41,409 bases of DNA from Escherichia coli (GTDB lineage: Bacteria; Pseudomonadota; Gammaproteobacteria; Enterobacterales; Enterobacteriaceae). Under the pieces are notes generated by a model. It saw only the letters and a program-made list of their open reading frames with translations, ran no database searches and was not told the origin of the DNA. The DNA is taken from NCBI RefSeq assembly GCF_003334815.1, contig NZ_QOWO01000033.1; one strand, written 5' to 3'. This document shows positions 25,098-27,562 of the stretch, in pieces; positions within the stretch are counted from its first letter, which is position 1; each line of letters opens with the position of its first letter. Both the position numbers and the translations under genes were made by a program.

Positions 25098-26567
25098 TCA
25101 TTTCCCCTTCACTGTTGTTTCCGGGGAAATATTTGCTTCATCCCGATATAAGTAGGCACTCTCCCCTGCCACCTGCCAGAGATGTACTAACGTTGAAAAG
25201 CCAACAACACCGTCAGTTTTCAAGTGGTGGCTTTTTTGAAATTGCTTTATTTTTTCTACCAACAAGGGACGCCACTCCGCCGAAGGTTCTGTCGAAATAT
25301 GCAATGCGCGGTTTAACATCGTTTCCAGCCAGAGAATCTCTTCCTCGCTGCTATCACGCGTAATGGTACTCTCCCCTTCCGGCGACATTTTCCACAACAG
25401 AAGATAATCACCCGTCCATACCGACTCAAACCATTTATGTGTCAGCGTCCACGTTTGCTGACCTACGAGGACATCAACGCTAGCCTCACCGACGCGAACG
25501 ACCACAACAGGCAATTTTTTGTCCCCGACTTTAAGCGATGCGATCCAGGGCAAATTCTGATCTACCAATGTTTGTAAAGAAGCATTCCCACTTTTACATA
25601 CCAGCCCCGCTCTTACTGCCTGATCGCACCAGGCCGAATCAGCTGGGACCTCGTACCCCCATACGCCGTATAACACGCTTAGCGCCTCACTATCGCGCAT
25701 CACCACATGAGCAATATCCTTAGTCATATCTTGTTTAACTACTGGCGTTACGGGTATCAGCCACGCAGGAACGGGTAACGTAGCTGTAAAAGAGGACAGC
25801 AGTAGCCAACCACAGGTAAGAGCGATAATGGTTCCACTCATCACCACGGCAAGCTGCATTTTCCGGGGGCGGTTATCACCCAATATGCGGTAAATCATTC
25901 GCCATTGTTTTGCTGTGAAAACGCTGGTCTGCTCGGCTTGCTGTAATAAGCGAATTGTTTCGCCGGCAAGCGCCAGCTTTCTGCGATCGCCCCGACATAA
26001 TAAAGCTATCCGTTTCAGAACTCTGGCGGTTAAAAGGAGATCGGGTTGGTCAATATTCTGACCTTCAAGGATGCTTGCCTTAAGTTCGTGCTCCGTCAGA
26101 CGTCCTATCGAGACAAGTTCAATGCCCTGTTTTTTAAAATCACGTTCGACTTTTCGATCGGGTCTGCCGATCAGCAAAAATTGACCGTCAGGAATAAGAG
26201 ATATTGCGCGTTGGAGATCATCAAGTATGCGGCGGTGATTCAGGTGAGCATTTTCAATAATAATAAGAGGGCAGCGACTATCAGTTCGATGAAGCGCATG
26301 CAGTAATTGCCCCGCCATCTCATCTCGCGTCCAGGCGCTGTCACGGCAGCCCTGTTCAGCCGCGTTATCGTCGGTAACGATCCATGCGGCCTTACCTTGC
26401 CAGGAAACAACGAGGCTTAAAGTAATCACACGGCGATGTTTATCTTTTTGCAGTTGCTGCGCCAGCCAGGTTTTTCCACTTCCAGCCTCACCCAACAAAT
26501 AGCATAGACGCCAGGTTTGACGTTTCTCACACAACCAGGAAAGAATAACTTCTCTTCTCGTAGACAT
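25098..26567 (-). CDS. gspA: Type II secretion accessory protein GspA (489 aa), P-loop ATPase with a C-terminal peptidoglycan-binding-like domain
   Basis: Track ORF; Walker A motif GEAGSGKT near the N-terminus. Confidence 0.88.
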   Translation of the reverse strand: MSTRREVILSWLCEKRQTWRLCYLLGEAGSGKTWLAQQLQKDKHRRVITLSLVVSWQGKAAWIVTDDNAAEQGCRDSAWTRDEMAGQLLHALHRTDSRCPLIIIENAHLNHRRILDDLQRAISLIPDGQFLLIGRPDRKVERDFKKQGIELVSIGRLTEHELKASILEGQNIDQPDLLLTARVLKRIALLCRGDRRKLALAGETIRLLQQAEQTSVFTAKQWRMIYRILGDNRPRKMQLAVVMSGTIIALTCGWLLLSSFTATLPVPAWLIPVTPVVKQDMTKDIAHVVMRDSEALSVLYGVWGYEVPADSAWCDQAVRAGLVCKSGNASLQTLVDQNLPWIASLKVGDKKLPVVVVRVGEASVDVLVGQQTWTLTHKWFESVWTGDYLLLWKMSPEGESTITRDSSEEEILWLETMLNRALHISTEPSAEWRPLLVEKIKQFQKSHHLKTDGVVGFSTLVHLWQVAGESAYLYRDEANISPETTVKGK

Positions 26568-26746
26568 AGAACTTCCTGTTTTAATTATTGATTATCCTTA
26601 ATCATAAAAATAATGTATGTATTTATTAATTAAATACATATTACTAATATAAATAAATTTTGCTTGATTCATGCAAGCGGCATTAATACTATTTATACTA
26701 ACGTCAATATACAACCCACCCAATCTATTTTATTAGAACATACATC
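26568..26746. promoter_or_regulatory. Divergent gspA / gspC promoter region, strongly AT-rich
   Basis: 179-bp intergenic gap between divergently oriented genes. The gsp locus of K-12 is known to be H-NS-silenced, which fits the AT-richness. Confidence 0.5.
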
Positions 26747-27562
26747 GTGCCCACACTACGTTTCCCCTTCCATCTGGCGAATCATAATAAAGATGCTGCC
26801 ATCAATATATTGATTATATTTATAAGCATAGGGTCGATTATTTTTAATGTGAATTATTTCCATACAACTATAGTTAAAAATGGACAGATCATTAATCAAC
26901 CAACAAACGCATTTCAGTCTGATTTCAGCCTTGCCGCTTTATGGCGTAACGAAAATCATGCTGGGGTAAAAGATGCAAATCCCGTGGCAGTTAATCAGGA
27001 AACACCTAAGCTCTCTATAGCGCTTAATGGCATTGTACTCACATCGAATGATGAGACTTCTTTTGTCTTAATTAATGAGGGGAGCGAACAAAAGCGATAC
27101 TCCCTCAACGAAGCCCTTGAGTCAGCGCCGGGAACGTTTATTAGAAAAATAAATAAAACCAGCGTTGTGTTTGAAACTCACGGGCATTACGAAAAAGTAA
27201 CTCTCCATCCAGGGCTACCTGACATCATCAAGCAGCCTGATTCAGAAAGTCAAAATGTACTCGCTGATTATATTATCGCCACGCCTATACGTGATGGAGA
27301 ACAGATATACGGGCTTCGATTGAACCCTCGTAAGGGCCTCAATGCATTTACCACCAGCTTGCTACAACCAGGGGATATCGCCCTCAGGATCAATAATCTT
27401 TCGCTGACCCACCCTGATGAGGTTTCACAGGCATTAAGTTTACTGCTAACTCAACAAAGTGCTCAGTTTACAATTCGTCGCAACGGCGTACCCCGCTTGA
27501 TAAATGTTTCCGTCGGGGAACTTACAGGAATGAATGGACTGCGTCATGAAAGGACTCAATAA
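26747..27562 (+). CDS. gspC: Type II secretion system protein C (271 aa), GTG start as in the track
   Basis: Track ORF; N-terminal membrane anchor; first gene of the gspC-O operon. Confidence 0.8.

Follow-up and report, generated by a model that had tools for sequence, protein, structure and literature searches.

Among the described systems, the promoter regions silenced by H-NS come closest to the control region between gspA and gspC of Escherichia coli. As in the case of proU, bgl and hlyE, the operon at the gsp locus is cryptic and accessory and has a promoter region with a very high AT content, H-NS repression and occupancy have been published, and motif-like sites lie upstream and downstream of the promoters with weaker AT-rich DNA between them; in this comparison, H-NS binding at gsp is known at the level of the region. 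Such an arrangement conforms to the picture of high-affinity H-NS sites, with the motif tCGATAAATT, that are interleaved with weaker AT-rich DNA (Lang et al. 2007). The inverted repeat in the gspA-gspC spacer, which is the subject of this analysis, differs from H-NS sites in that it is a poor match to tCGATAAATT, and dyad symmetry is no feature of H-NS sites.

Further relatives are the counter-silencing sites of the MarR-family regulators SlyA and RovA (TTAN6TAA or TTAGCAAGCTAA), which are AT-rich pseudo-palindromes, as is the gsp palindrome. SlyA binds the gsp fragment and raises gspC-F, and an exact TTAN6TAA abuts the right arm of the palindrome. Unlike the even 12-bp SlyA/RovA dyad, however, the gsp palindrome measures 23-25 bp, has an odd centre and contains the motif in one-mismatch versions only; moreover, SlyA binding at gsp is known for the whole fragment. 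The sites of the LysR-type regulator LeuO, for which the published motifs are described as 23-nt and AT-rich with a T-N11-A core, are similar to the gsp palindrome in length, AT-richness and core. They overlap H-NS sites, and the LeuO SELEX regulon, as given in Curran et al. 2017, includes the promoter region of gsp. This resemblance is generic, as any AT-rich dyad fits T-N11-A, and it refers to the described core rather than to a LeuO matrix. Finally, quasipalindromes of E. coli are template-switch hotspots at which mutation can turn an imperfect repeat into a perfect one; they are offered here as a possible non-functional source of the symmetry.

The regulation of the gspA-gspC control region is already described. 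H-NS represses gspAB as well as gspC-O, precisely the 179-bp spacer is shifted by SlyA in a fragment-level EMSA (apparent Kd ~50-100 nM), and gspCDEF is up 2.4-fold on SlyA over-production (Curran et al. 2017). The same paper marks the gspC operon as H-NS-bound in two ChIP datasets, and its Table 3 gives a candidate SlyA site, TTATATTAGTAA, '79 bp upstream of gspA'. The spacer has also been recovered as an RNA polymerase SELEX site and flagged for H-NS in genomic SELEX, with predicted promoters TTAATA-17-TATGAT for gspAB and TTGATT-17-TACTAT for gspC (Shimada et al. 2014). In an IPOD-HR study it is the single prominent protein-occupancy peak left in that region, and it is catalogued as a 'promoter island' as well.

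The inverted repeat and the promoters around it

The window, i.e. the whole stretch of DNA that was analysed (41,409 nt), carries a K-12-type gsp locus. An initial annotation had noticed a perfect inverted repeat with 9-bp arms in the gspA-gspC spacer and had read it as typical of a dimeric regulator operator or, alternatively, as a curved-DNA or H-NS nucleation element or a chance palindrome. The repeat is present as it was described (ATGTATTTA at 26617-26625, ttaat at 26626-26630 and TAAATACAT at 26631-26639), and the perfect match is in fact one pair longer, which gives 10-bp arms in the arrangement TATGTATTTA-TTAAT-TAAATACATA at 26616-26640 (Table 1). The length of the spacer, 179 bp, and its AT-richness were likewise correct: the GC content is 22.9% overall and 14% in the core at 26575-26665, and the region 26600-27000 has 30-35% GC. 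The palindrome itself consists of 92% A+T (2 G/C in 25 bp) and includes seven TpA steps. Its supposed position roughly midway between the divergent start codons, however, was wrong, since the centre at 26628 is 61 bp away from the gspA ATG and 119 bp away from the gspC GTG.

Table 1. Coordinates of features in and around the gspA-gspC spacer (window positions).
Feature	Position	Strand	Remarks
gspA CDS	25098..26567	minus	agrees with RefSeq
Promoter-like match TTAATA-17-TATGAT for gspA	26601..26629	minus	-35 inside palindrome; predicted (consensus scan and Shimada et al. 2014)
Left arm TATGTATTTA	26616..26625		repeat scan; earlier 9-bp arm began at 26617
5-bp spacer TTAAT	26626..26630		dyad centre on base 26628
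Right arm TAAATACATA	26631..26640		repeat scan
Candidate SlyA site TTATATTAGTAA (TTAN6TAA)	26641..26652	minus	site of Curran et al. 2017 mapped here; abuts right arm
Best H-NS match of the spacer, TAAATAAATT	26650..26659	plus	8/10 against tCGATAAATT; 7.87 bits, above the window's 99.9th percentile
Putative gspC core promoter	26660..26692	plus	-35 TTGCTT (26660-65) or TTGATT (26664-69); -10 TAATAC (26684-89) or TACTAT (26687-92)
gspA promoter elements	26679..26700	minus	TAGTAT -10 at 26691-26686 and 26700-26695; listed starts 26679 (-112) and 26688 (-121); further listed start 26664 (-97)
gspC CDS	26747..27562	plus	GTG start; agrees with RefSeq
H-NS-motif matches in the AT-rich gspC 5' end	26802..26843	plus	TCAATATATT at 26802-13 on both strands; TCGATTATTT at 26834-43

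For gspA, Mendoza-Vargas et al. 2009 list four start sites from earlier reports, at -97, -112, -121 and -236 relative to the ATG. These sites map to window positions 26664, 26679, 26688 and 26803. On the minus strand, the hexamer TAGTAT is located exactly at -12 to -7 of both the -112 and the -121 site, and this placement supports the listed start-site coordinates. Read on the plus strand, the two TAGTAT -10 elements are ATACTA repeats 9 bp apart (26686-26700), which explains why the listed gspA starts at -112 and -121 are 9 nt apart. When the listed starts at -97, -112 and -121 are taken as a basis, the palindrome belongs to the gspA leader, where it falls between +25 and +73, according to which start is used. 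The promoter-like match TTAATA-17-TATGAT for gspA is a consensus prediction only and fits none of the 5' ends listed as reported (-97, -112, -121, -236, +19 and +65).

An A-rich stretch, the sequence CTTGCTT and then, ~16-18 bp on, TAATAYTATT are retained at loci with no more than 41-45% GspA identity, a conservation that fits a gspC promoter at 26660-26692. Judging from these elements, transcription of gspC would start at about 26696-26699. The centre of the palindrome would then be found at about -68 to -71 of the gspC start, and ~20 bp would separate its right edge from the -35 element downstream. According to this map, the gspA and gspC promoters would overlap back to back, and since the gspA TAGTAT elements overlap the putative gspC -10, the two promoters should compete for RNA polymerase.

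Conservation of the spacer and expectation by chance

E. coli genomes were searched with a 179-bp and a 379-bp query, and the 379 bp around the palindrome proved to be 100% identical to MG1655 derivatives, C600 and many other strains. In a sample of 60 E. coli genomes, taken evenly down the match ranking, the spacer is identical in 54 and has one SNP in each of five; the remaining row is a 35-bp partial match only. The spacer SNPs in E. coli fall at 26620, 26646, 26651, 26662 and 26663. Only one of these five sites lies in an arm, and its variant, T26620C, breaks the left arm without compensation in three E. coli strains. The SNPs at 26646 and 26651, both within the candidate SlyA site, occur in single strains each. 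Among five diverged strains, the spacer has one polymorphic site (T26620C) versus 21 in 400 nt of flanking coding DNA, which are split into 10 sites in 200 nt of gspA (26368-26567) and 11 in 200 nt of gspC (26747-26946). This near-invariance within E. coli indicates that the DNA of the spacer is constrained, though not the palindrome in particular. As to the distribution of the locus, the whole gspA...chiA block is present in only ~58% of complete E. coli genomes.

A single divergent allele was found, represented by a Logan contig (L009) and a metagenome contig (L024, OLSJ01000311.1); a search of 5426 complete E. coli genomes gave no match to it. Compared with the window, its nucleotide identity amounts to 99.4-99.8% for rplC/rpsJ, 93% for gspD, 73-79% for gspA/gspB/gspC and 88% for the spacer. 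The divergent gspA, gspB and gspC would reflect either unusually fast evolution or import from another Escherichia lineage. With 72% identity versus 88% for the whole spacer, the 25-bp palindrome marks the minimum of conservation along the spacer in this allele, and the stretches 26687-26735 and 26591-26615 are 96-100% and 96% identical, respectively. The counterpart of the palindrome reads AATGCATTTA-TTGATA-TTAATGCGTT, i.e. its spacer has 6 bp instead of 5, and the arms carry six substitutions, with the right arm differing at 4 of 10 positions. Nevertheless, eight of the ten arm pairs are kept. Two pairs are broken, and two have changed on both sides, namely 26616/26640 from T-A to A-T and 26620/26636 from T-A to C-G. 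In a simple decay model in which a perfect palindrome received six random substitutions, at least eight pairs survived in 1.7-2.8% of trials. The retention of eight pairs together with two compensatory changes (P = 0.017-0.028, for one allele and one alignment) may thus be taken as a hint that the symmetry is maintained. Template switching at quasipalindromes, however, could give such apparent compensatory changes without selection.

In distant syntenic loci (41-45% GspA identity), the palindrome is absent at the corresponding place, though the gspC promoter core is kept. A metagenome scan with the conserved left flank yielded 12 contigs, ten of which have the K-12-type spacer (one with a single SNP outside the palindrome); the other two are the divergent allele and an unrelated or chimeric contig, and no intermediate spacer alleles were present among the 12. 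When species-representative genomes were scanned with the GspA protein, only two contaminant-like contigs were returned. One of them, filed under a Flavobacterium record, has an intergenic region that equals that of the window apart from single-base indels, and the other is a 273-bp fragment.

Two sequences that came up in the searches may be mentioned here. A contig of ERZ860059 (L018, bases 192-228) has only GATTATCCTTAATCATAAAAATAATGTATGTATTTAT in common with the gsp spacer, and midway through the palindrome all similarity ceases; the contig may stem from chimeric assembly or may match by chance. A locus with 45% GspA identity (L010) contains a perfect inverted repeat with 18-bp arms, TATATTTATAATTATTAT and ATAATAATTATAAATATA, which are separated by 10 nt. 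This repeat occupies bases 239-284 of the stretch that separates the start of gspA from the called start of gspC, at the place expected to encode the Ile-rich N-terminal membrane segment of GspC.

Shuffled sequences had been named in the initial annotation as the control for a palindrome that arose by chance. We shuffled the 179-bp spacer with its mono- or dinucleotide content kept and counted repeats with a spacer of up to 10. Arms of at least 9 bp were obtained in 3.9-6.4% and arms of at least 10 bp in 1.2-2.0% of the shuffled 179-bp sequences; for the shuffled 91-bp AT-rich core the corresponding values are 6.9% and 2.6%. These probabilities apply to one region only, for which the 10-bp arms are mildly unusual, and the excess over chance is marginal. 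Regions bound by H-NS and of similar AT-richness number in the hundreds in an E. coli genome, and therefore a few such palindromes are to be expected by chance. The gsp palindrome is thus mildly unusual for its region, and this marginal signal becomes weak once the many AT-rich regions of the genome are counted.

Altogether the window holds nine perfect repeats with arms of at least 9 bp and a spacer of up to 10. The other eight have 36-70% GC, several of them being terminator-stem-like, and the gsp palindrome, with its 2 G/C in 25 bp, is the only 'AT-only' repeat of that size. Allowing for up to three mismatches, we detected no second copy or near-copy of it elsewhere in the 41-kb window, the chiA control region included, and a literature search with the palindrome string gave no relevant match. 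An operator common to the gsp and chiA regions was rejected, as the local alignment score was 12 versus 10.7 +/- 1.3 for shuffled sequences and the half-site spacing differs. Likewise, NagC, LexA, TyrR and dif/Xer-like sites, which were considered as leads only, either match poorly or are spaced differently. The sequence ATTATTGATTATCCTTAAT (26584-26602), adjacent to the ribosome-binding site of gspA, is Fur box-like, with about 12 of 19 positions in agreement with the consensus GATAATGATAATCATTATC.

Possible readings: silencing tract, operator, RNA hairpin and cruciform

The explanation that we prefer, with modest confidence, is that the palindrome is a segment of a TpA-rich silencing tract that is bound by H-NS/StpA over the gspAB and gspC-O promoters, and that its symmetry is incidental. 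In favour of it, the palindrome has the characteristics of an H-NS spreading zone: its A+T content exceeds ~70%, it is TpA-rich, and it is located inside a silenced region that is occupied by H-NS according to the literature, at the level of the region. To look for H-NS sites we used a PWM derived from the eleven H-NS sites given by Lang et al. 2007. Within 26612-26640, ten overlapping 10-mers score above the window's 99th percentile, and the top hits of the spacer are situated just outside the palindrome, at 26650-59, where TAAATAAATT is identical in the divergent allele, and at 26582-91. The matches in the 5' end of gspC, at 26802-13 and 26834-43, are strong hits, too. Top hits around the palindrome and moderate hits within it match the picture of Lang et al. 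2007. The motif is poorly selective, however, with many equally good hits in the ribosomal protein genes of the window, and the hits are therefore only consistent with H-NS binding and no proof of it. Of the H-NS alternative given in the initial annotation, the H-NS-silenced, AT-rich tract is borne out by literature and composition. A nucleation-grade motif inside the palindrome is not: the best 10-mers there reach 5.3-6.4 bits (99th-99.9th percentile), and none of them matches at 8 of 10 positions. As to curved DNA, the palindrome contains no A-tracts of at least 4 bases, and its seven TpA steps suggest flexibility rather than static curvature.

The following course of events may be envisaged. 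H-NS would nucleate on the better motif matches at 26650-59, 26582-91 and 26802-43, the last of them in the 5' end of gspC, and would then spread across the lower-affinity AT-rich DNA, so that the palindrome itself would presumably be covered. By coating or bridging the DNA on either side of the promoter core (~26660-26725), H-NS would keep both operons cryptic. In such a bridging geometry, which is likewise presumed, the matches at 26802-26843 could possibly serve as the partner flank across the promoters. The counter-silencers SlyA and probably LeuO would bind the same tract and loosen the H-NS complex, the best SlyA motif abutting the right arm. The exact dyad would have arisen by chance in low-complexity DNA or by a quasipalindrome template-switch mutation; its symmetry would presumably be incidental, and no dedicated dimeric regulator would read it. 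A chance origin, which had also been considered in the initial annotation, may well apply (P = 1-7% per region); taken together with the H-NS/curved-DNA alternative, it is favoured over an operator.

That the palindrome is instead the discrete operator of a dimeric or tetrameric factor, be it SlyA (a MarR-family dimer), LeuO (a LysR-type tetramer) or another regulator, appears rather doubtful to us. The dyad bound by such a factor would be situated ~56-80 bp upstream of the gspC start and 25-73 bp downstream of the listed gspA starts; from there, the factor would either displace H-NS and so activate gspC, or prevent transcription of gspA. The perfect 10-bp dyad is of operator-like size, and in this respect the headline of the initial annotation stands; arms of this length are found in 1-3% of shuffles, the symmetry is partly kept in the divergent allele with two compensatory changes, and the whole spacer is very strongly conserved within E. 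coli. On the other hand, no segment of the spacer is less conserved in the divergent allele than the palindrome, whose arm spacing there goes from 5 to 6. The palindrome is absent from distant relatives, is hit by the natural uncompensated SNP T26620C and has no related site elsewhere in the window, not even upstream of the functionally linked chiA. As for SlyA, the protein binds the 179-bp fragment and its best motif abuts the right arm, but an exact TTAN6TAA was not found inside 26616-26640; the best candidates there, TTTATTAATTAA and TTATTAATTAAA, have five of the six fixed bases each, and because of the odd spacer the centre of symmetry coincides with a base, which is not so in the even 12-bp SlyA site. 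As for LeuO, the inner palindrome TTTATTAATTAAA fits the T-N11-A core, albeit trivially, because this core is almost uninformative in DNA of 92% A+T. Moreover, the listed starts place the palindrome in the gspA leader rather than between two promoters.

The location in the leader, at +25 to +73 by the listed starts, would suit a role of the palindrome as RNA, in which a 10-bp A-U hairpin would affect the stability, translation or premature termination of the gspAB mRNA. We regard this as very unlikely. The gspA-sense hairpin is calculated at -6.9 kcal/mol (z = -2.6), T26620C turns a pair into a G-U wobble on the gspA-sense strand at unchanged energy, and in the divergent allele the same pair (26620/26636) is G-C; in addition, a U-rich run follows 5 nt downstream, and the U-run region 26591-26615 is 96% conserved in that allele. 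The stem is weak, however, with only one G-C pair, and the folding of the leader as a whole is not superior to that of shuffled sequences (z = -0.7 and -0.35). The gspA-sense hairpin of the divergent allele reaches only -3.1 kcal/mol (z = -1.0) and the opposite strand folds better, which makes the strand signal inconsistent. The ribosome-binding site, ~40 nt downstream, is untouched by the hairpin, a terminator scan made no call at the palindrome, and an Rfam search gave noise hits only. Neither the stable conserved stem of a structured leader nor the G+C-rich stem with U-run of an intrinsic terminator is therefore seen. Extremely improbable, in our view, is a function as structural DNA, i.e. 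as an AT-rich cruciform or an easily melted, supercoiling-responsive site that tunes the promoters or H-NS binding. The perfect arms, the short loop and the very AT-rich setting would be appropriate, as AT-rich flanks favour cruciform extrusion, each DNA strand folds at -5.9 kcal/mol (z = -3.1), and compensatory changes would preserve the symmetry without base identity. Yet arms of 10 bp are about the shortest that extrude in vivo, two pairs are mismatched and the loop is longer in the divergent allele, and the flexibility suggested by the TpA steps, in the absence of A-tracts, is at odds with static curvature.

The chiA upstream region and cryptic secretion

The region upstream of chiA (41023-41264), which is a second AT-rich silenced region of the window, contains another perfect inverted repeat, with 15-bp arms, ATTCATATTTAAAAT and ATTTTAAATATGAAT, that are separated by 16 nt (41170-41215). 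In shuffles, 0 of 5000 sequences reach 15 bp, and the probability of arms of at least 12 bp is 0.0018. The arms are unchanged in four diverged E. coli strains, in which G41185A lengthens them to 16 bp, and the surroundings show 5-11 differences. Statistically, the chiA-upstream repeat is a stronger candidate element than the gsp palindrome; we found no description of it. One might speculate that the gsp palindrome, conserved in its symmetry, is an operator or supercoil-sensitive hairpin for a factor that wakes cryptic chitinase secretion, and that the chiA-upstream repeat is its counterpart, but we consider this highly improbable.

The chiA gene itself (38329-41022, minus strand) has an in-frame stop at 40261-40263, between IYKNA and WVG, which cuts the 897-codon gene after 253 residues. 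ChiA therefore looks inactivated in this strain. The 301 bp around the stop are identical in 2 of the 3123 E. coli genomes that have the segment, and the next-best among the matches listed are 99.7% identical; the window thus does not derive from MG1655 itself.

The genes for the K-12-type Gsp secretion system and for its substrate ChiA are a classic example of cryptic genes, and we know of no natural condition that induces them. The ChiA endochitinase is thought to be exported by the Gsp system (Curran et al. 2017). The palindrome falls in the tract that is already described as bound by H-NS, SlyA and LeuO; it adds at most a candidate sub-site to it and is no new kind of element. As by-products, the analysis provides a map of the palindrome relative to the listed gspA starts and to the gspC promoter core that is conserved across species, and it reveals that E. 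coli strains hardly differ in the gspA-gspC spacer, in contrast to its variable flanks. A dedicated operator in this spacer, if it were true, would offer a handle on what induces the cryptic Gsp system and ChiA.
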